Source of the DNA: an uncultured Actinomycetota bacterium
GTDB taxonomy: Bacteria > Actinomycetota > Geothermincolia > Geothermincolales > Geothermincolaceae
DNA: 64,000 bases
Assembly (NCBI GenBank): GCA_964515075.1
Contig: CAZETE010000001.1
Location: 34,623-98,622, forward strand
Reading direction: 5' to 3'
Below the pieces are notes generated by a model, which worked only from the letters and a program-made list of their open reading frames with translations, searched no databases and was not told where the DNA came from. Shown here piece after piece: positions 4,479 to 49,324 of the stretch (the stretch's first letter is position 1; every line of letters starts with the position of its first letter). The translations under genes were made by a program, and so were the position numbers.

Positions 4479-5322
4479 AAGGGACGGCAGGTCGGGGGCG
4501 GGGACCGCGGGCAGGGGAGCTGGGCGCGTCCTCGACGCCTTCGACGCCTTCATCCTGGACATGGACGGGGTGCTCTACCGCCGCGACGAGCCCATCCGCA
4601 CGGCGGTGGAGTTCGTCGGCCGGCTGGCAGCCGAGTCCAAGGAGGTCCTCTTCCTCACCAACAACTCCCGGTACGGGACGGAGCACTACCGGAGGAAGCT
4701 CAAGGCCATGGGCATCGAGGCCGGCCGCGAAGCCATCCTGACCTCCCCCGAGGTGCTGCGCGAGTACCTGCGTGAGGGCCGGGCGGCGCCGGGCGAAACG
4801 GCCCTGGTCATCGGCAGCCGGGCACTGGAGAGGGAGGTGGAACGGGTGCCGCTCGAGCTGGTCCGCGGCGAGGAGGGCAAGCGCGCGGACCTGGTGGTGG
4901 TGGGGTGGGACACCGCCATCAACTACGAAAAGCTCAAGGCGGCCTGCCTGGCCGTCCACAACGGGGCTGCCCTGGTGGCCACCAACGACGACGCCACCTA
5001 TCCCGCGCCGGAGGGCAAGTGGCCGGGGACCGGGGCCCTGGTGGCGGCGCTGGAGAGGTGCACCGGCGAGCGGGCGGCGGTGGTGGGCAAACCCAACCCC
5101 TACATGATGGAGTGCGCCCTGCGGCGCGTGGAGGCCCCGCGCTCGCGCATCCTGATGATCGGCGACCGGGTGGAGACGGACGTCCTGGGCGGGAAGCGCG
5201 CCGGGTTGAGGACCTGCCTGGTGCTGACGGGGGTGAGCGGCAGGGCGGATGCCGAGGCCGCCCGCCCGCGGCCCGACTACGTGGTCGGGGACCTGACGGA
5301 GCTGGCCGCCGTCCCGCGATGA
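4471..5322 (+). CDS. HAD-IIA family hydrolase (NagD-like sugar-phosphatase)
   Basis: DMDGVLY catalytic motif I (DxDGxL). The internal motif LTNN and a C-terminal GD...TD motif are typical of NagD/HAD-IIA. Start is uncertain. The ATG at 4471 overlaps the upstream stop. Confidence 0.8.
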   Translation: MPRRDGRSGAGTAGRGAGRVLDAFDAFILDMDGVLYRRDEPIRTAVEFVGRLAAESKEVLFLTNNSRYGTEHYRRKLKAMGIEAGREAILTSPEVLREYLREGRAAPGETALVIGSRALEREVERVPLELVRGEEGKRADLVVVGWDTAINYEKLKAACLAVHNGAALVATNDDATYPAPEGKWPGTGALVAALERCTGERAAVVGKPNPYMMECALRRVEAPRSRILMIGDRVETDVLGGKRAGLRTCLVLTGVSGRADAEAARPRPDYVVGDLTELAAVPR

Positions 5323-22812: not shown

Positions 22813-23375
22813 CCGCGGCGAAGGACACCGGCGGCTACCGGACCCTCTCCAGCCGGGCGCTCTTCGAGGGGGCGGTGGTCCGGCTCTTCCTGGACCGGGT
22901 GCGCCAGCCCGACGGCAAGGCGGTGGAGCGCGAGGTGGTGCGCCACTGGGGGGCGGTGGGGGTGGTGGCGCTGGACGACGCGGGGAGGCTCTACATGGTG
23001 AAGCAGTACCGGCACGCCCCCGGGGAGGTGCTGCACGAGATACCCGCGGGAAAACTGCTGCCGGGGGAGGATCCCCTGGACTGCGCGGCGCGCGAACTTG
23101 AAGAGGAGGTGGGGGCGAAGGCCTCTCGCTGGTCCCCCCTCTGCAGCTTCTACACCTCGCCCGGCTTCTCCGACGAGGTGCTCCATCTCTACCTGGCGGA
23201 GGACCTGACGGAAGGGGAGCCTCGCCCGGAGGAGGACGAGTTCCTGGAGGTCTACAGGGTGGACCTGGAAGAGGCGCTGCGCATGGTCTGGCGGGGCGAG
23301 GTACGCGACTCCAAGACCATCGCCGGCATCGCCCTGACATTTGTAAAATTGGGGTCAGGCCCCAAATCCACTTGA
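22809..23375 (+). CDS. NUDIX hydrolase (ADP-ribose pyrophosphatase-like)
   Basis: Nudix box GKLLPGEDPLDCAARELEEEVG. The last 11 codons plus the stop are encoded by REP copy 1. Confidence 0.8.
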   Translation: MTAAKDTGGYRTLSSRALFEGAVVRLFLDRVRQPDGKAVEREVVRHWGAVGVVALDDAGRLYMVKQYRHAPGEVLHEIPAGKLLPGEDPLDCAARELEEEVGAKASRWSPLCSFYTSPGFSDEVLHLYLAEDLTEGEPRPEEDEFLEVYRVDLEEALRMVWRGEVRDSKTIAGIALTFVKLGSGPKST

Positions 23376-23379
23376 CCGT
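23341..23379 (+). repeat. REP-like hairpin element, copy 1 (core GGGGTCAGGCCCC)
   Basis: TTGTAAAATTGGGGTCAGGCCCCAAATCCACTTGACCGT. Imperfect palindrome AATTGGGG-tcagg-CCCCAAATT. A near-identical 39-nt copy lies 56 nt downstream. Confidence 0.7.
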
Positions 23380-23396
23380 GCGCGAAATTACTGAAA

Positions 23397-23435
23397 TTGT
23401 TAAATTGGGGTCAGGCCCCAAATCCACTTGACCGT
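23397..23435 (+). repeat. REP-like hairpin element, copy 2 (direct repeat of 23341-23379)
   Basis: TTGTTAAATTGGGGTCAGGCCCCAAATCCACTTGACCGT; 38 of 39 nt identical to copy 1. Confidence 0.7.
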
Positions 23436-23493: not shown

Positions 23494-24600
23494 TTGAGAT
23501 TAGGGGTACCGAAGGAAGTGATGGACCACGAGTTCCGTGTCGGGCTGACGCCGCATGGGACTCGCGAGTTGGTGAACCAGGGCCACACGGTGCTGTTGGA
23601 GACGGGGGCGGGCGAGGGCTCGGGGTTCTCCGACGAGGAATACGTCAACGCGGGGGCCTCCCTGTGCGGGGAAGCCGGCGACCTCTACGCGGAGTCGGAG
23701 CTGATCGTCAAGGTGAAGGAGCCTCAGCCCGAAGAGTTCGGGATGCTGAGAGAAGGGCTGATGCTCTTCTGCTACCTGCACCTGGCGGCCCATCGCGAGG
23801 TGACCGAGGAATTGATGTGCAGGGGGGTGACCGCCGTAGGCTACGAGACCGTCGAGGAGAACGGCGAACTGCCCCTGCTGGCGCCCATGAGCGAGGTGGC
23901 CGGGCGCCTGTCGCCGCAGATCGGGGCGCATTACCTGGAGAAGCAGAACGGCGGGAGGGGCGTCCTGCTCAGCGGCACCACCGGTGTGGCGCCGGCGGAA
24001 GTGGTGGTGCTGGGGGCGGGCATGGTGGGCTTCAACGCAGCGATCATGGCCACCGGCATGGAGGCCCGCGTGATCGTGCTGGACCGGGACTTGAAGAAGC
24101 TCAAGTACCTCGAGAACAACCTGCAGGGGCGCATCTCCACCCTCTTCTCAAATCAATACAACGTCGCGGAGGCCGTTGCCCAGGCCGACCTGGTCATCGG
24201 GGGACTGCTGGTTCCCGGGGCACTGGCGCCGCGCGTTCTGACCGAGTGGATGGTAAGGGAGATGCAGCCCGGCGCGGTCTTCGTGGACGTCTCCATTGAC
24301 CAGGGAGGCTGCTCGGAGACTTCCCGGCAGACCACCCACTCGGAACCGGTCTATACGATGCACGGCGTCACCCACTACTGTGTCGGGAATATCCCGGCAG
24401 CGGTTCCCCGGACCTCCACGTTCGCCTTGACCAACTCCACCCTGCCCTACGTGGAGCGCCTGGCGGGCCTGGGGTTGGAAGAGGCCTGCCGGCGGTACCC
24501 GGGGATGTGCTCGGGAGTCAATGTCATGGGCGGCGCGGTCACCTCCCGGCCGGTGGCGGATTCGCTGGGTCTGGAATGCCGTCCGCTCGAGCAGAAGTGA
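23494..24600 (+). CDS. ald: alanine dehydrogenase
   Basis: TTG start after AAGGAGGGA. NAD-binding motif VVVLGAGMVG; full-length AlaDH/PNT family. Confidence 0.9.
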   Translation: MRLGVPKEVMDHEFRVGLTPHGTRELVNQGHTVLLETGAGEGSGFSDEEYVNAGASLCGEAGDLYAESELIVKVKEPQPEEFGMLREGLMLFCYLHLAAHREVTEELMCRGVTAVGYETVEENGELPLLAPMSEVAGRLSPQIGAHYLEKQNGGRGVLLSGTTGVAPAEVVVLGAGMVGFNAAIMATGMEARVIVLDRDLKKLKYLENNLQGRISTLFSNQYNVAEAVAQADLVIGGLLVPGALAPRVLTEWMVREMQPGAVFVDVSIDQGGCSETSRQTTHSEPVYTMHGVTHYCVGNIPAAVPRTSTFALTNSTLPYVERLAGLGLEEACRRYPGMCSGVNVMGGAVTSRPVADSLGLECRPLEQK

Positions 24601-24622
24601 ATTGGGGTCAGGCCCCGAATTC
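24599..24622 (+). repeat. REP-like hairpin, forward orientation, overlapping the ald stop codon
   Basis: GAATTGGGGTCAGGCCCCGAATTC. Confidence 0.7.
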
Positions 24623-24659
24623 ATTTTCGCAGCTGAGAACCGGTGGCCGAGAAAAAGGT

Positions 24660-24684
24660 GAATTTGGGGCCTGACCCCGAATTG
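24660..24684 (-). repeat. REP-like hairpin, inverted orientation (forms a BIME-like inverted pair with 24599-24622)
   Basis: GAATTTGGGGCCTGACCCCGAATTG. Loop CCTGA is the reverse complement of TCAGG. The two units are separated by 37 nt. Confidence 0.7.
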
Positions 24685-40066: not shown

Positions 40067-41401
40067 TTGCTGCCCCTGGTGGCCGTAGTCGGCCGTCCCA
40101 ACGTGGGCAAGTCCACCCTGGTCAACCGGATCATCTCCAGCCGCGAGGCCATCGTGCAGGAGGAGCCCGGGGTGACCCGCGACCGCAACTACTACGTCGC
40201 CGAATGGCGCGGACGCCGCTTCGGCCTGGTGGACACCGGGGGGCTGGACCCGGGGGCCCGCGACGAACTGACGGCCGGGATGGGGGAGCAGGCCCGCTAC
40301 GCGGTCCGGGAGGCCGACCTGGTGCTGCTGACGGTGGACGCCCGGGACGGGCTGACCGCGGCGGACGAGGAGGTGGCGGAGATCCTGCGGGGCCTGGACC
40401 GCCCCATCATCCTGGTGGTCAACAAGGTGGACAACCCCCGGCGCGAGGAGGCGCTGACCGCCGACTTCCACCGCGCCGGCTTCCCGCTAACCGTGGCCGT
40501 ATCCGCCCTGCACGGCCTGGGAGTGGGAGAACTTTTGGACGAGGTGGCGGAGGCCCTCCCCCCCAAGTCCCCGGAGGAGGAGGAGGAATCGGGCGAGAGG
40601 CCCCTGACCGTGGCCATCGTCGGCCGTCCCAACGTGGGCAAGTCGTCCCTCTTCAACCGCCTCGTGGGGCAGGACCGTTCGCTCATCCACGACCAGCCGG
40701 GCACCACCCGCGACAGCGTGGACATCCGCGTGGAGATGGGCGGGCAGCCGGTGACCTTCGTGGACACCGCCGGCTGGCGGCGCCGGTCGCGCATCGTAAG
40801 CGAGGTGGAGTACTTCTCGGTGGTGCGCCTATGGAGGACCCTGGACCGCGCCGACGTGGCCCTGCTGCTCATCGACGCCACCGAGGGGGTGACCGACCAG
40901 GACCAGCGCATCGCCGCTCGCATCCGCGACGACGGGCTGGCCTCCGTGGTCGTCCTCAACAAGTGGGACCTGGCCAGGGAGGGCGAACGGGCGCGCGAGC
41001 TGGTGGAGGACGCCCGGGAGGACCTGGAATTCATCGCCTACTCGCCCATCCTGCGCGCCAGCGCGCTGACCGGCTGGGGGACGGATAAGATCATGCCCGA
41101 GGTGATGCGGGCCCACGCCAACTGGCGGCAGCGCATCCAGACCTCCCACCTCAACCGGTTGAAGGAGGAGCTCATCCTGCGCACCCCGCCTCCCTCCAGG
41201 CGCGGCAAGCAGCTGCAGATCTACTACATCACCCAGGTCCGCAGCGCCCCGCCGGAGTTCGTCTTCTTCGTCAACGACCGCGGACTGGCCCGCCCGGAGT
41301 ACCACCGCTTCCTGGAGCGGCGCATCCGCGAGACCTTCGACTTCACCGGCACCCCGGTGCGGGTGGCCCTCAAGGGCAAAAAATCCGGGGTCAGGCCCTG
41401 A
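40067..41401 (+). CDS. der: ribosome biogenesis GTPase Der (EngA)
   Basis: Two G domains (GRPNVGKST and GRPNVGKSS; DTGG/DTAG; NKxD) and a KH-like C-terminus. The final 6 codons plus stop lie inside the left REP/TIR. Confidence 0.9.
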   Translation: MLPLVAVVGRPNVGKSTLVNRIISSREAIVQEEPGVTRDRNYYVAEWRGRRFGLVDTGGLDPGARDELTAGMGEQARYAVREADLVLLTVDARDGLTAADEEVAEILRGLDRPIILVVNKVDNPRREEALTADFHRAGFPLTVAVSALHGLGVGELLDEVAEALPPKSPEEEEESGERPLTVAIVGRPNVGKSSLFNRLVGQDRSLIHDQPGTTRDSVDIRVEMGGQPVTFVDTAGWRRRSRIVSEVEYFSVVRLWRTLDRADVALLLIDATEGVTDQDQRIAARIRDDGLASVVVLNKWDLAREGERARELVEDAREDLEFIAYSPILRASALTGWGTDKIMPEVMRAHANWRQRIQTSHLNRLKEELILRTPPPSRRGKQLQIYYITQVRSAPPEFVFFVNDRGLARPEYHRFLERRIRETFDFTGTPVRVALKGKKSGVRP

Positions 41402-41467
41402 CGGGAATTGACGAAACCTGCGATAACCCGGGAGAGGGCATCCGGGAAAGTCGCCCCCGGGATTAAA

Positions 41468-41496
41468 TTGACATATAATATAAGTTATATATAATA
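41468..41496 (+). promoter_or_regulatory. sigma70-like promoter of the RAYT gene (TTGACA - 17 nt - ATAATA), predicted leaderless transcript
   Basis: -35 TTGACA at 41468-41473; -10 ATAATA at 41491-41496. Both are AT-rich islands in GC-rich DNA. The -10 abuts ATG 41497, and the second ATG at 41503 sits at the expected +1. Confidence 0.5.
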
Positions 41497-42495
41497 ATGA
41501 ACATGACTCGACCGCTGCGCATCGAGAAGAGGGAAGCCTTCTATCACGTCATCACCAGGGGGAACCGGGGTGACGATATCTTTGCCAATGACGGGGACAA
41601 GCTCTATTTCCTCGACCACCTTGGCAGAGCCGCCACAAAGTACAGCGCAGTCTTCTACGCGTATTGCCTCATGAGCAATCATTATCACCTGCTCATCGAG
41701 ACGAAAGAGCCCAACCTCTCCTCGGTCATGCATTATATCAACTCCTCTTTTGCCTCCCATTTGAGGAAGGGCAGGGAAGTGGGGCACATCTTCGCCGGAC
41801 GCTACAAGTCCATCCTTGCCGAAAAGGGAGAAAGCATAGCCCCCCTCAGCCGGTACGTGCACCTGAACCCGGTCAGGGCCTCGCTGACGGCGATGCCAGA
41901 AGAATACCACTGGTCCAGTTATCGTTATTTCGTTGAGAGGGGCGCAGTTCCGGGCTGGCTCGATACTTCTTGGCTGGTGGGGTCGTTCGGAGGAACGCTC
42001 GAGGCTGCCAGGAAACGCTACCGAGACTACGTCGAGAACGGAACCTTCGAGGAGTTCTCCTTCGAGCTAGACTGCCGGCAAGCGGGAAGAGAGCCGGTAG
42101 CCGGCAGCGTGGAGCGGGAAGCCCCCGGAAAGGAGGAACGGGCCAGGGAGGGCCTTCCGCCAGTGGGTCCCCCCGGAGGTAGTTTCGTCAAGCCCGTACG
42201 GTTGAGCGACCTGCATACGGCCGCCTGTTCGTTCTATTCACTGGAAAGGCTCGACGGAGAAGGCGGTGGGCTGGACGGGTACTGCAGGCGGGCACGGAAC
42301 ATGTTCATCTGGCTCGCGCGGGAATATACCGCTGCGCAGAACTGCGAGATAGGGAATTACGCGGGAGGGCTCAGCAGTTCCGGCATAACCCAGCAGTTCC
42401 TGCGCACCAACGAGGCGTTGAAGCGGGGGAAGGAATGTCCGGATAGATGGCGCCACGAAGCCCAAGCGATTCTGTCAATTCTCGTCAGGGCCTGA
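41497..42495 (+). CDS. REP-associated tyrosine transposase (RAYT; IS200/IS605-family Y1 HuH transposase-like)
   Basis: YHVITRGNRGDDIF, HuH motif AYCLMSNHYHLLIE, GRYKSIL and YVHLNPV are typical of TnpA-REP. Length 332 aa. The stop lies inside the right TIR. The true start may be ATG 41503 (leaderless). Confidence 0.8.
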   Translation: MNMTRPLRIEKREAFYHVITRGNRGDDIFANDGDKLYFLDHLGRAATKYSAVFYAYCLMSNHYHLLIETKEPNLSSVMHYINSSFASHLRKGREVGHIFAGRYKSILAEKGESIAPLSRYVHLNPVRASLTAMPEEYHWSSYRYFVERGAVPGWLDTSWLVGSFGGTLEAARKRYRDYVENGTFEEFSFELDCRQAGREPVAGSVEREAPGKEERAREGLPPVGPPGGSFVKPVRLSDLHTAACSFYSLERLDGEGGGLDGYCRRARNMFIWLAREYTAAQNCEIGNYAGGLSSSGITQQFLRTNEALKRGKECPDRWRHEAQAILSILVRA

Positions 42496-42506
42496 CCCCG
42501 GATTGG

Positions 42507-42515
42507 TGCTATAAT
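42507..42515 (+). promoter_or_regulatory. extended -10 element TGCTATAAT immediately downstream of the right TIR; candidate plsY-gpsA promoter
   Basis: TGnTATAAT lies 48 nt upstream of the plsY ATG. Confidence 0.4.
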
Positions 42516-42562
42516 CTACGATACGTTCGGCTCCCAGTGGTGTTAGACTTACCGGTGACGAC

Positions 42563-43186
42563 ATGGCGAAATACCTGTGGCTGCTAGCTTCCTACCTGGT
42601 GGGATCCATACCCACCGGCCTCTGCGTCTCCAAGGTGGTCTACCGCTCGGACCTGCGCCGGCTGGGCAGCGGCAACATCGGGGCCACCAACGTCCTGCGG
42701 AACTACGGCTTCCAGCCCTTCCTGGGGGTGCTCATCCTGGACATGTCCAAGGGCGTGGTGGCGGTGCTGGTGGCCAGGGCGCTGGGCCTGGGGCAGCCGT
42801 GGGTGATGGCCTGCGGGCTTCTGGCCATAGTCGGCCACAACTGGTGCATCTGGCTCGGGTTCTCCGGAGGGAAGGGCATCGCCACCTCGGCCGGGGTCAT
42901 CGTGGCGGCCTTCCCCTGGCCGGTTATATTCGCCACCGCCTGCGCCTTCCTGGCCTTGGTGCTGGCCACGCGCATCATGTCCGCGGGCTCCCTGGCGGGC
43001 GCGGCGGCCTTCCCCCTGTCGGCCCTGGTATATTACCGCGGGGAGTTGGGGGAGAACTGGGCCATGCTGGCCTTCAGCGCGGCGGCGGCGGGCTTCGCCG
43101 TACGCCGGCACCGCGAGAATATCGGGCGGCTGCTCCGGGGCGAGGAGCCGAAGCTGTCCCTTAAGCGCCGGGGGAGCGGTAGTTGA
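42563..43186 (+). CDS. plsY: glycerol-3-phosphate acyltransferase PlsY
   Basis: GSGNIGATN motif; 5 TM helices. Confidence 0.9.
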   Translation: MAKYLWLLASYLVGSIPTGLCVSKVVYRSDLRRLGSGNIGATNVLRNYGFQPFLGVLILDMSKGVVAVLVARALGLGQPWVMACGLLAIVGHNWCIWLGFSGGKGIATSAGVIVAAFPWPVIFATACAFLALVLATRIMSAGSLAGAAAFPLSALVYYRGELGENWAMLAFSAAAAGFAVRRHRENIGRLLRGEEPKLSLKRRGSGS

Positions 43187-46439: not shown

Positions 46440-46685
46440 TCAGTTGGCGGCCGAGTCGATCTCCCGAGGGTTGGGCACCTCGCAGCGCCAGGCCCGCACC
46501 TCGTGGCCGTCGTCGTCGGTCATCAGGACCGAGGGGGTGCACTGGATGCCGTAGAAGGCCGCCTCCGCCAGCCCTTCCACCTGGTCGAGGTCGAAGATCT
46601 GCACCTCGCCCGCGAACCCCCTCACCGCCTCCTTGGCGGCGGGGCACTTCGGGCAGTCTTGCTTGACGAAGAGTTTAAGATACAA
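46440..46685 (-). CDS. glutaredoxin-like / NrdH-like small redoxin (thioredoxin fold, CPKC active site)
   Basis: 81 aa. KQDCPKCP active-site CxxC and TPSVL cis-Pro region. Located between nrdD and nrdG with overlapping ends. Confidence 0.6.
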   Translation of the reverse strand: MYLKLFVKQDCPKCPAAKEAVRGFAGEVQIFDLDQVEGLAEAAFYGIQCTPSVLMTDDDGHEVRAWRCEVPNPREIDSAAN

Positions 46686-48843
46686 GCTTCAGCCCTCCCT
46701 TCCCGGCCTCCCGGCCGTCAGCCTCGTTTGACGCGTTCAAGTTGGAAAGGGCGGTACGGCCCCGGTCCCTCAGCTCCCCCATCTTGCCCCGGTTCCAGGT
46801 GGAGATCTTGGAGAAGTAGCCCACGATGCGGGTGATCCCGTAGACGTCGCCCGAGTCGCACAGCGGGCAGCGCTCGTGCAGCCCGCGTGAAGTGCGGCGG
46901 CAGTCGTTGCACACGGTGAACTCGGGCGAGAAGGCGATCTGGGAGGAACGGGTGTTGCGGAAGGTCTTCTCCACGAAGCTGCGGATGGAGCGGGGGTCCG
47001 GCTCGTGCTCGCCCAGCCAGATGTGGCAGATGGCCCCGGCGTCGATGAGCGGGTGGAAGAGGCTCTGCTTCTGGATGCGCTCGATGTAGTCGATGTCTTC
47101 TTCCACGTTCAGGTGGACGCTGTTGGTGTAGTAGAACTCCCCGCTCTCGAGGTTGCCCTTGATCACCCCGGCGGTCTGCTCCGGGAAGTACTTGGCGTCC
47201 AGCTTGGCCAGCCGGTAGCCGCTGGATTCGGCGGGAGACTCCTCCAGCACCAGCTGGATGCCGTACTGCTCGGAGAGGCGCTTGCAGGTCAGGTTCATGT
47301 GCGCGATGACCTTGAGCCCGAACTTCAAAGCGTCCTCCGATTCGTGCAGCTGCTTCCCGTAGTGGTGCTGCACCAGCTCGTTGAGGCCGAGGATGCCGGC
47401 CAGGTAGGTCAGGCGGTCCAGGCGCAGGTAGTCGTCGCCGTCCTTGGCGGCGCAGAGCATGGAGAGCGGTCCGGTGACCCCCAGGTCCAGCAGGCCGGCG
47501 ATGAAGGCCTTCTTCTGCAGGTGGGCCTTGGCCACCAGCTGCAGGGCCTTGTCCAGCTCGTTGAAGAGGAGCTCGTCGGAGCCGTTGGCCTTGAAGGCGA
47601 TGCGCGGCAGGTTGATGGTGATGTTCTGCAGAGCCGAGAAGCGCATCTTCTCCGGGGTCCTGGTCTCCTGGAGGTCCTCGTCCTTGAGCTTCAGCTTGAG
47701 CCGGCAGCACTGGGAGACGGTGATCTCGTCCCCCCGGTCGAAGACGAAGTAGGTGATGCCCTGATGCGCCGCCACCCTGCAGGCCAGGTCGAGGAACTCC
47801 TCGTGTCCCTCCGTGGAGAAGAAGTCCTCGCTGATGTGGAGCAGCGGCTTGGGGAAGACGAAGGTCTTGCCCATGGCGTCCCCCTCCAGGTAGACCTCGA
47901 AGAGCGCGGTGATGAAGGCCTGCATCTCCTGCTCGTAGTCCTTGTACTTCTTGCCGGTGTACCTGCCGCCCGGACCGATGGCCGGGGTCTCGCGGAAGTG
48001 CCGGGGGACGTTCCAGTACAGGTTGAAGTCGGTGAAGACCACCTGCGAGCCCCGCGCCCCGGCCAGCTGGTTGAACTCGTAGATGAGCATCTGGGCCAGC
48101 TGCTTGATGCGCGGGTACTCCAGGCCCGTGAGGAAGGGGGCGAAGAACATGTTCACCGCCTCCCAGCCGATGGCCCCGGCGTAATAGGACTGGAGGGTGG
48201 AGGCCATCTTGACCATGTGCCCGATGAGCACCTCGGGGTGCTTGGCCGGGCGGGAGGTGGAGGTGATGTTGGGCAGGGACAGCCCGTACTTCTTTATGTA
48301 CTCCAGGCTGTGCCCGCCGCAGTAGGGCCGGACGATGAAGCCCAGGTCGTGCAGGTGGATGTCCCCCACCATGTGGGCCTGGGCCACGTCCTCGGAGAAG
48401 ACCTTGCGCATGGCGTAGTCCTTGAGGATGGCCTCGGCCAGGGTCAAGTTGATGGATTCGGGGTTGTGGGTGGTGTTGCTGTTCTCCTTGTTGGCGTTGA
48501 GGATGATCTGCTCCACGTCGTACATGGGCAGCCCCAGCTGCGAGTGCTTCTTGTGCAGGGTGTTGTGGCCCCGCTTGAGCAGCTCCAGGTCCACCAGCTC
48601 GCGGATGATGGAGGTGGTTACGGTGTTCATCTTCGAGGAGACGATGGTCTGCTCCACCGCGCCGGCGATCTCCTCCGCCAGCGGCCGGGCCATCCCCGTC
48701 TCCAGCACCAGCGAGGTGACGATCTTCTCCGGGTCCCAGAGGTTTATCTCCTCCTTGGAATAAGTGCTGACGAGGAGGGCGATGTCCGTGGTGTCGCCCG
48801 CCGCGCCCGTCCTCTTCACTACCTTGATCTGACTGGCCCCCAT
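46675..48843 (-). CDS. nrdD: anaerobic ribonucleoside-triphosphate reductase (class III, glycyl-radical)
   Basis: ATG at 48843 after GAGGAGGTAGAC. N-terminal ATP-cone. C-terminal Zn-ribbon CNDC...CPLC. Glycyl-radical motif RIVGY near the C-terminus. Confidence 0.9.
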   Translation of the reverse strand: MGASQIKVVKRTGAAGDTTDIALLVSTYSKEEINLWDPEKIVTSLVLETGMARPLAEEIAGAVEQTIVSSKMNTVTTSIIRELVDLELLKRGHNTLHKKHSQLGLPMYDVEQIILNANKENSNTTHNPESINLTLAEAILKDYAMRKVFSEDVAQAHMVGDIHLHDLGFIVRPYCGGHSLEYIKKYGLSLPNITSTSRPAKHPEVLIGHMVKMASTLQSYYAGAIGWEAVNMFFAPFLTGLEYPRIKQLAQMLIYEFNQLAGARGSQVVFTDFNLYWNVPRHFRETPAIGPGGRYTGKKYKDYEQEMQAFITALFEVYLEGDAMGKTFVFPKPLLHISEDFFSTEGHEEFLDLACRVAAHQGITYFVFDRGDEITVSQCCRLKLKLKDEDLQETRTPEKMRFSALQNITINLPRIAFKANGSDELLFNELDKALQLVAKAHLQKKAFIAGLLDLGVTGPLSMLCAAKDGDDYLRLDRLTYLAGILGLNELVQHHYGKQLHESEDALKFGLKVIAHMNLTCKRLSEQYGIQLVLEESPAESSGYRLAKLDAKYFPEQTAGVIKGNLESGEFYYTNSVHLNVEEDIDYIERIQKQSLFHPLIDAGAICHIWLGEHEPDPRSIRSFVEKTFRNTRSSQIAFSPEFTVCNDCRRTSRGLHERCPLCDSGDVYGITRIVGYFSKISTWNRGKMGELRDRGRTALSNLNASNEADGREAGKGGLKLVS

Positions 48844-48862
48844 GTCTACCTCCTCGATATCC

Positions 48863-49324
48863 TCACTTATCGGTTTTCTTGGTGAGCTCTCCCAACTCCT
48901 CCTGGAACTGGGAGACGTCCTTGAAGTCCTTATAGACCGACGCAAAGCGCAGATAGGCTACTTCGTCGATCTCCTTGAGCTTCTTGAGGACTATCATACC
49001 TATGGCCACCGACTTAATCTCCAGCTCGCCCCGCGCTCGCAGCTCCGCCTCTATCCCTTCCATGGCCTCCTCCACCTTCTGCCGACTGGCCGGGCGTTTC
49101 TCGAAGGCCTTGACCAGGCCGGCCACGACCTTCTCGCGCTTGTAGGGCACCCGCTCCCCGCTGCGCTTGATGACCATCGCCGGTATCTGCTCATATCTTT
49201 CGAAGGTGGTGTAGCGCGATCTGCAGTCGAGGCATTCCCGCCTCCGCCTGATCACGTTGCCCCCCTCGGAGGAGCGGGAATCAACGACCCTGCTGTCCCG
49301 GTGGCCGCAGAAAGGACACTTCAT
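48863..49324 (-). CDS. nrdR: transcriptional repressor NrdR
   Basis: MKCPFCGH...CLDC zinc ribbon plus ATP-cone; 153 aa. Confidence 0.9.
   Translation of the reverse strand: MKCPFCGHRDSRVVDSRSSEGGNVIRRRRECLDCRSRYTTFERYEQIPAMVIKRSGERVPYKREKVVAGLVKAFEKRPASRQKVEEAMEGIEAELRARGELEIKSVAIGMIVLKKLKEIDEVAYLRFASVYKDFKDVSQFQEELGELTKKTDK

Follow-up and report, generated by a model that had tools for sequence, protein, structure and literature searches.

A RAYT-like gene bounded by long inverted repeats in the der–plsY junction of an uncultured Actinomycetota bacterium: a probable TIRtron

Among the genes that resemble the REP-associated tyrosine transposases (RAYTs; REP, repetitive extragenic palindromic sequence) are the TIRYTs, RAYT-like genes with long flanking terminal inverted repeats (TIRs) that together form a ‘TIRtron’; many of these TIRs share the motif GGGGWSAS and some make up modest repeat families, occurring as singles, dimers or groups (PMC3733652). 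In Quentin et al. (2018; PMC6006769) subclass 2.1 of the TnpA_Y1 proteins is identified with what Di Nocera et al. (2013) call TIRYTs and takes in 291 of the 292 sequences that Bertels et al. (2017) put in RAYT group 1, ‘Y---NP’ is defined as the class-2 signature, and subclass 2.1.2 has C-terminal Bac_DnaA_C, HTH_23 or HTH_28 domains and a patchy taxonomic spread. The TIRYTs (group 1 or subclass 2.1) are there the largest RAYT-like group, found in about 15% of strains; the same paper reports no REP-like structures beside subclass 2.1 genes, and subclass 1.1 only in the Actinobacteridae. Bertels et al. (2017; PMC5581495) describe group 1 as the most insertion-sequence-like of the RAYT groups: 6.3% are duplicates, 1.2% lie on plasmids, and the 16-mers that flank them number about 12 copies per replicon. 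The subject of the present study is a unit of about 1.1 kb that separates der from plsY in a stretch of DNA from an uncultured Actinomycetota bacterium (contig CAZETE010000001.1, positions 34,623 to 98,622; this whole 64-kb stretch is called the window below, and positions are counted from its first letter).

We consider it highly probable that the explanation, taken as a whole, is that the unit is a TIRtron encoding a TIRYT (subclass 2.1.2, RAYT group 1), horizontally acquired and with an enzyme that disperses end-derived repeats in trans. Compared with the known classes, the protein passes the Pfam threshold for the HuH/Y1 superfamily and has an HuH motif and a single tyrosine on an HuH fold; it carries the class-2 TnpA_Y1 signature Y---NP (Y120-VHL-N124-P125); and it shares with the TIRYTs and TIRtrons the C-terminal helix-turn-helix extension, the long TIRs and the GGGGWSAS motif. 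It does not reach the NCBIfam cutoff for the classical RAYTs and is not flanked by GTAG-tagged REP stem-loops (no GTAG tag was found at the flanks of the unit), and it departs from the IS200/IS605 pattern in having TIRs, a two-domain protein of about 330 aa, one genomic context and no second open reading frame (ORF). The original prediction, made from the sequence alone, was of a classical RAYT with its own REPs in the configuration proposed for REP genesis; as the NCBIfam score is below cutoff, the hairpins are weak, a DnaA-like domain is present and the ends fit GGGGWSAS, the unit has been refiled under the already described TIRYT/TIRtron class (PMC3733652; PMC6006769).

The prediction of an HuH/Y1 transposase gene was supported by a match to Pfam Y1_Tnp (PF01797; residues 15–122, 38.6 bits against a cutoff of 23), which is matched by 19 of 19 family members, and by the best structural match, E. 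coli TnpA_REP (4ER8). The sole NCBIfam match was to REP_Tyr_transpos (NF047646, equivalog), at 60.2 bits against a cutoff of 80. In the alignment of the 19 sequences H62, Y63, H64, R119, Y120, H122, L123, N124 and P125 are invariant. The AlphaFold model (pLDDT 77.5) has two domains, with disorder at residues 187–230 and a C-terminal domain of pLDDT 83–94. With the N-terminal domain Foldseek found 4ER8 best (E 3e-6, TM 0.73), then the TnpA proteins of IS608 and ISDra2, and with the C-terminal domain it found the DNA-binding domains of DnaA (3PVP, TM 0.78; 1J1V, TM 0.80). A family profile run against PDB likewise matched DnaA domain IV (1J1V, E 8e-8, positions 232–314), with 4ER8 marginal (E 0.22); a single-sequence phmmer search of PDB gave only noise and did not find 4ER8. 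The Pfam model Bac_DnaA_C scores 15.4 bits in this protein, below its threshold of 31.5, is found in 9 of the 19 family members and is a precomputed match in many of the homologues of about 320 aa, of which metagenomes and metagenome-assembled genomes (MAGs) hold more than 5,800 across many phyla (Nitrospirota, Desulfobacterales, Synergistetes and others). In the profile alignment the base-contacting DHTTV of DnaA corresponds to S-S-[SA]-[IV] in the TIRYT family, which is compatible with an altered DNA specificity. By sequence and predicted structure the protein is thus an HuH/Y1 enzyme, RAYT-like with a DnaA-like C-terminal tail, and its catalytic role is presumed. The suggestion that such a gene would be notable in Actinomycetota agrees with the restriction of the Actinobacteridae to subclass 1.1 cited above, but with so many homologues in so many phyla it amounts to a modest extension.

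As predicted, the sequence AATCCGGGGTCAGGCCCTGACG at 41382–41403 and that at 42483–42504 are exact reverse complements over 22 nt when the sequence is read directly; an inverted-repeat search extends the arms to 31 nt at 97% complementarity, the single mismatch being at arm position 23, and inverted repeats as long as this elsewhere in the window reach 88% complementarity at most. The perfection of the 22 nt is however strain-specific, as a sister strain (L004) has a T>G change. The motif GGGGTCAG, at 41387–41394 (+) and 42492–42499 (−), fits the published GGGGWSAS. Between the arms lies one ORF (41497–42495, 332 aa) with the motifs YHV, NHYHLL and YVHLNPV, and the ORF list holds no second one in the unit. 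The GC content of the unit is 0.579 against 0.680 for the window, and GC at third codon positions (GC3) is 0.725 in the TIRYT gene against 0.91–0.945 in der, plsY and gpsA. An Rfam scan of 41000–43000 gave zero matches and no visible target-site signature was seen at the unit. Both arms are partly coding: the outer left TIR supplies the final five der codons (SGVRP) and the TGA stop, and the right TIR encodes the last seven codons of the TIRYT gene (S-I-L-V-R-A and the stop region).

Upstream of the gene there is a sigma-70 consensus promoter with 12/12 matches (Table 1), its −10 ending 7 nt before the likely start codon (ATG 41503, preferred because homologues begin M-[A/V]-R-P-L-R-I-E), so that a leaderless or near-leaderless mRNA is predicted. 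Three distant homologues have a promoter of the same design (12/12 matches at locus L021, 12/12 at L024 and 10/12 at L025) with the −10 ending 5–7 nt before the start codon, and at all of these loci, the window included, the −35 box is the inner TTGACA of the left end. Since in the window this TTGACA belongs to a degenerate inner copy of the TIR, and the intact outer copy lies 57 nt farther out, running into der, the left end is duplicated. In gapped local alignment of the inner copy with both TIRs the observed score was reached by 1–3 of 500 shuffles; no similarity was found between it and the solo repeats described below. The right end pairs with the outer left copy.

To see how far this arrangement is shared, four distant homologues (L021, L024, L025 and L022; 38–44% identity) were examined with their flanking DNA, and inverted repeats were found around the gene in all four: TGGGGTCAGCCCTTGAAGATTGACA at L021 (25/25), GGGGTCAGCCCCTGACAATTGACA at L024 (24–28 nt), AGGTGTCAGACCTACAC(A/T)TTTGACA at L025 (25 nt) and, at L022, GGTCAGCCCTCGAA followed by TTGAC/GTGACA. 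The ends have a common two-part layout in which an outer GGGGTCAG-type motif is followed about 21 nt farther in by (A)TTGACA. In every homologue examined the right repeat covers the last ~7 codons and the TGA, and this accounts for the C-terminal sequence that the family conserves, I-[LM]-S-x-[FV]-[KR]-G-stop. All ends could form a short G/C stem around a loop that contains TCAG. The claim that each end is a REP-type hairpin could not be maintained, the stems folding no better than shuffles, and the GTCAG..CTGAC palindrome was rejected as a functional hairpin, being not significant and absent from the ends at L021 and L025. Another instance of multiplied ends was seen beside a more distant homologue (P0115; L030 1070–1190), where a variant end, AAAAGGGTCAACTCTCCA, has two to three extra tandem copies just downstream of the gene.

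Base composition predicts about 0.07 copies of the 12-mer GGGGTCAGGCCC in the window; there are exactly six, and the four outside the unit lie at 23351+, 23407+, 24604+ and 24678−; an nhmmer profile of the six copies recovered the same six and no further copies in the window. The copies at 23351 and 23407 read AAATTGGGGTCAGGCCCCAAATCCACTTGAC, and their GGGGTCAG...N...TTGAC spacing equals that of the TIRs. The inverted pair at 24598..24684 folds as a long hairpin (−27.1 kcal/mol, z −6.7) and is REPIN-like. The original prediction had cognate REPs at two other loci; repeats that share the core are indeed present at two loci, but their cognate relation to the TIRs, judged from sequence likely, is unproven because the identity is limited to a 12–13-nt core plus the spacing. 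A search of the genome collection with a 20-nt TIR gave ten matches, none from the host genome and mostly in coding sequence or by chance, the remainder being a few repeat-like sites in MAGs of Rokubacteria and Actinomycetota. In one Actinomycetota MAG (CAZEAU010000029.1; L014 2665–3092) eight copies of a ~40–60-nt unit containing TTCGGGGTCAGGCCCGG are clustered between genes and share the core with the window repeats; the 8 kb examined contains no Y1 gene. The outer 21 nt of the window TIR (AATCCGGGGTCAGGCCCTGAC) are identical at intergenic sites of two Rokubacteria MAGs (L011 5209–5228 and L015 675–694), and ~3.8 kb from the second of these (L015 4460–5401) there is a 313-aa Y1 homologue, 37% identical across query residues 1–185 (the N-terminal domain). 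In the window the ald gene (23494..24600; GC3 0.873, somewhat below der, plsY and gpsA) is bracketed by inverted TIR-like repeats (23346–23371 versus 24658–24683; 26 nt, 88%), which could be a chance placing of intergenic repeats or a repeat-bounded cassette.

The der–plsY junction was then compared in relatives ordered by Der identity to the window (the nearest named Der homologues, in Actinomycetota MAGs and ‘Candidatus Solincola sediminis’, have 57–60% identity, in keeping with an Actinomycetota-like host). The sister strain L004 (98.9% nucleotide identity over the whole locus) has the same unit, in which the T>G change in the left arm (window position 41399; L004 9888–9976) abolishes the der stop and leaves the repeat at 21/22, so that Der is called as 467 aa rather than 444 and reads through the TIR. 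On a JGI contig (3300075153; Der P0134, 82%) a TIRYT homologue of 328 aa (P0002, 61% identical) lies between der and plsY–gpsA; der there retains the native tail KKRPK, and TIRs are inferred for P0002 from its C-terminus ILSIVRG only. At L028 (Der 83%, and 94% to P0134) the junction has instead, at 4541–5148, a 58-aa ORF and a PIN-domain protein, a VapBC-like toxin–antitoxin pair. The junction is empty at L029 (Der 78%), L027 (75%) and L017 (67%), which bears out the predicted 1.1-kb unit in an otherwise uninterrupted junction, and no solo TIR or footprint was found at the junctions of L017, L027, L028 and L029. Missing from the window, by comparison with the empty sites, are the native final codons of der and ~60 nt of spacer; the putative plsY extended −10 is kept at the empty junctions (CTGCTATAAT). 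Occupancy is thus patchy, with the gene in two lineages, three junctions empty and one with a toxin–antitoxin pair, and small modules seem to have landed in this spacer repeatedly.

As for the age of the unit, a homologue at 61% identity in the same junction implies long residence, and the idea of a simple fresh insertion did not survive the finding of that homologue where Der is 82% identical, nor the signs of selection on the gene. Relative to L004 (99%) the ORF has 20 nucleotide differences, 16 synonymous and 4 non-synonymous, at residues 202, 227 and 229 (disordered linker) and 256 (a loop of the C-terminal domain). Because synonymous changes predominate and three of the four others are in the disordered linker, the sequence comparison indicates that the gene is under purifying selection, functional and constrained. 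The protein and its 99% relative each have a single genomic context on record, and tblastn against 72,556 plasmids found no full-length homologue, only N-terminal matches of 30–41% identity. The simplest history is that the gene would have been gained horizontally into the der–plsY spacer in the ancestor of the window and P0134 lineages, then inherited and lost in some relatives, and that a rearrangement in the window lineage would have left the duplicated left end overlapping the der 3′ end; two independent gains at the one spacer are a possible alternative.

By analogy with characterized relatives, the TIRYT would be a class-2 HuH/Y1 single-stranded DNA endonuclease/transferase composed of an N-terminal catalytic domain, a disordered linker and a DnaA-domain-IV-like DNA-binding domain, and it would recognize its own ends. 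Most plausibly the helix-turn-helix domain would bind the double-stranded inner box; to judge from how TIR-bearing insertion sequences behave in general, such binding at the left end would also keep the gene's own promoter repressed. The HuH/Tyr domain would cut and rejoin single-stranded DNA close to the small hairpin formed by the G/C stem and TCAG loop, cleavage being through Y120 and a metal held by H62 and H64 if TnpA_REP and the IS200/IS605 TnpA, established by structural and biochemical work on 4ER8, IS608 and ISDra2, are a guide. End-derived repeats would be dispersed or maintained in trans, the gene itself remaining in a single copy. A more detailed version, in which the two parts of the TIR are recognized separately, is doubtful when all its parts, from retargeting and repression to trans-mobilization and the circle, are taken together. 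Its parts are that the DnaA-like domain may have changed its target from the DnaA box TTATCCACA to the inner ATTGACA; that one binding event may both mark the double-stranded ends and shut off the gene; that the HuH domain may act on the neighbouring GGGGTCAG hairpin when the DNA has become single-stranded; that the end-derived repeat pairs, including the inverted copies bracketing ald, may be moved in trans; and that a stand-alone 1,122-bp contig (below) could be an excised circle in which GGAT is joined to AATCC. A circle or tandem would join ...CCCCGGAT to AATCCGGGG....

Several points weigh against the assignment to a TIRtron that disperses repeats in trans. The repeat counts are for the window only, which limits what they say of abundance, and the solo repeats resemble the TIRs only in the 12–13-nt core and the spacing. 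The 5-bp GTCAG/CTGAC stems of the ends reach −3.1 to −3.6 kcal/mol (z +0.5 to +0.9 against shuffles), and L025, which keeps the G/C stem with other bases (AGGT/ACCT), is suggestive but the sole compensatory case. Quentin et al. (2018; PMC6006769) argue that GGGGWSAS is unlike the DnaA box, a comparison that concerns the outer GGGGWSAS only. Our literature search found no experimental or biochemical study of any TIRYT, and the steps of activity given above are by analogy. Finally, the junction history calls for either two or three losses or else two gains in the same place, and the Der beside the P0002 TIRYT is 94% identical to the Der (L028) beside the toxin–antitoxin pair.

Of the rival explanations, that of an active, self-mobilizing insertion sequence bounded by TIRs and recently and independently inserted at der–plsY is unlikely, though the near-perfect TIRs, the foreign composition, the varying presence among very close relatives (with the PIN toxin–antitoxin pair at the L028 junction), the stand-alone contig of exactly 41382–42503 from a short-read assembly and the standing of group 1 as the most insertion-sequence-like RAYTs (Bertels 2017; PMC5581495) all speak for it; what tells against it is the single genomic context on record for the protein and its 99% relative, the long residence implied by the 61% homologue, the want of a visible target-site signature, the lack of a full-length homologue in the 72,556 plasmids, and the fact that in such assemblies plain single-nucleotide polymorphisms (SNPs) also cause contig breaks. 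That the gene is a domesticated DNA binder which moves no DNA, its TIRs being operators and the dispersed repeats unrelated relics or terminators, is improbable: it would account for a single-copy gene under purifying selection at the same position at 61% identity, for a −35 box inside the repeat (which suggests autoregulation) and for a REPIN-like pair at a gene end, where a terminator is expected, but a pure DNA binder has no need of HuH, Tyr and NP motifs that are invariant across distant homologues, the right TIR is conserved though without a promoter, and loss of the gene in close relatives shows that it is not essential. Very improbable is a REPtron, in which a classical RAYT flanked by REPs of its own would seed a population of REPs and REPINs throughout the genome. 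The best structural match to 4ER8, the single NCBIfam match, the REPIN-like inverted doublet (z −6.7) and the strongly over-represented core 12-mer would be expected of it; the NCBIfam score falls short of its cutoff, however, 4ER8 was missed by phmmer and reached only E 0.22 with the profile, the DnaA-like domain is extra, the flanks are 31-bp TIRs with insignificant hairpins and no GTAG tag, and no REP-like structures were reported beside subclass 2.1 genes by Quentin et al. (2018; PMC6006769).

Independent short-read assemblies break exactly at the outer bases of the TIRs: L006 corresponds to 41382–42503 and L005 to 40861–42503, and L001–L003 start at 42477. These breaks are compatible with extra junctions (other copies, the GGAT to AATCC circle or other alleles). 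Logan contig breaks as evidence of mobility were downgraded, since the fixed break at another homologue is likeliest from SNPs between samples.

The locus and its homologues offer a compact, testable anatomy for the class, with an outer hairpin motif, an inner −35 box and a C-terminus and stop written by the right end, and make the DnaA-like domain the candidate reader of the inner box. They extend the TIRYT class to a deep-branching, under-sampled Actinomycetota-like lineage, and present the der–plsY spacer as a landing site for a TIRYT in two lineages and a PIN toxin–antitoxin pair in another. The inner −35 box, the leaderless design, the duplicated left end and the right-end-written C-terminus may not have been spelled out before; in the available text of the TIRYT papers (PMC3733652, PMC6006769, PMC5581495) no mention was found of the inner TTGACA/−35 box or the leaderless design. 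Current understanding is not overturned by the locus. Elsewhere in the window, 46675–49324 is the lowest-GC stretch (0.565 around 48600), possibly of foreign composition, and contains on the minus strand what we take, by recognizing the sequences, to be an anaerobic ribonucleotide reductase-like ORF (756 aa) and an NrdR-like ORF (153 aa).

Table 1. Features of the unit, its flanks and the dispersed repeats in the window
Feature	Position	Strand	Remarks
der	40067..41401	+	Upstream flank; native C-terminal tail (KKR..) replaced by TIR-encoded SGVRP and stop
Outer left TIR	41382..41412	+	AATCCGGGGTCAGGCCCTGACGGGAATTGAC; outer motif GGGGTCAG, inner TTGAC
Inner left TIR copy, degenerate	41439..41473	+	ATCCGGGAAAGTCGCCCCCGGGATTAAATTGACA; ~29 nt from the start codon, the family-typical distance
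Sigma-70 consensus promoter	41468..41495	+	TTGACA-16-TATAAT, 12/12 matches
TIRYT gene	41503..42495	+	ORF list start 41497, ATG 41503 likelier; TGA 42493–42495 inside right TIR
HuH motif codons H62-Y63-H64	41680..41688	+	Invariant in 19 family members
Y120-V-H-L-N124-P125 codons	41854..41871	+	Presumed catalytic Tyr; class-2 ‘Y---NP’ signature; V position varies
C-terminal DnaA-domain-IV-like helix-turn-helix domain	42190..42492	+	Approximately residues 232–331
Right TIR	42474..42504	−	Minus-strand reading AATCCGGGGTCAGGCCCTGACGAGAATTGAC
plsY extended −10 (putative)	42507..42515	+	TGCTATAAT; directly after right TIR
plsY	42563..43186	+	
Direct pair of TIR-like repeats	23341..23435	+	AAATTGGGGTCAGGCCCCAAATCCACTTGACC; 56 nt apart; between Nudix-like ORF and ald
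Inverted pair of TIR-like repeats	24598–24637, 24645–24684	+, −	Between ald and xerD-like gene

Set beside the known systems, the unit is most like the described TIRYTs and TIRtrons, which have a RAYT-like Y1 protein of ~320 aa with a C-terminal helix-turn-helix of the Bac_DnaA_C type, long GGGGWSAS TIRs of which the right one overlaps the gene 3′ end, a small family of paired repeats (the pairs in the window matching what Di Nocera et al. call ‘dimeric’ TIR repeats) and a single-copy, patchily distributed gene; it differs from them in its deep-branching Actinomycetota-like host and in the duplicated left end, with the outer copy fused to the der stop and the degenerate inner copy serving as promoter. 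E. coli TnpA_REP (group 2, 4ER8) shares the HuH/Y1 fold, Y---NP, a single-copy gene and flanking cognate repeats, but is a protein of 165 aa with 16% identity and no helix-turn-helix domain, and the E. coli REPs and BIMEs (bacterial interspersed mosaic elements) are, unlike the ends of the unit, GTAG-tagged stable hairpins in hundreds of copies. With the IS200/IS605 TnpA proteins (IS608, ISDra2) the unit has in common the catalytic fold, presumably the single-strand chemistry and the lack of a visible target duplication, whereas those elements have subterminal hairpins without TIRs, a TnpA of ~130–150 aa, many copies and often tnpB. DnaA domain IV (1J1V, 3PVP) resembles the C-terminal ~100 residues of the protein in fold and profile, and its box, TTATCCACA, differs from ATTGACA, the candidate target in the unit.

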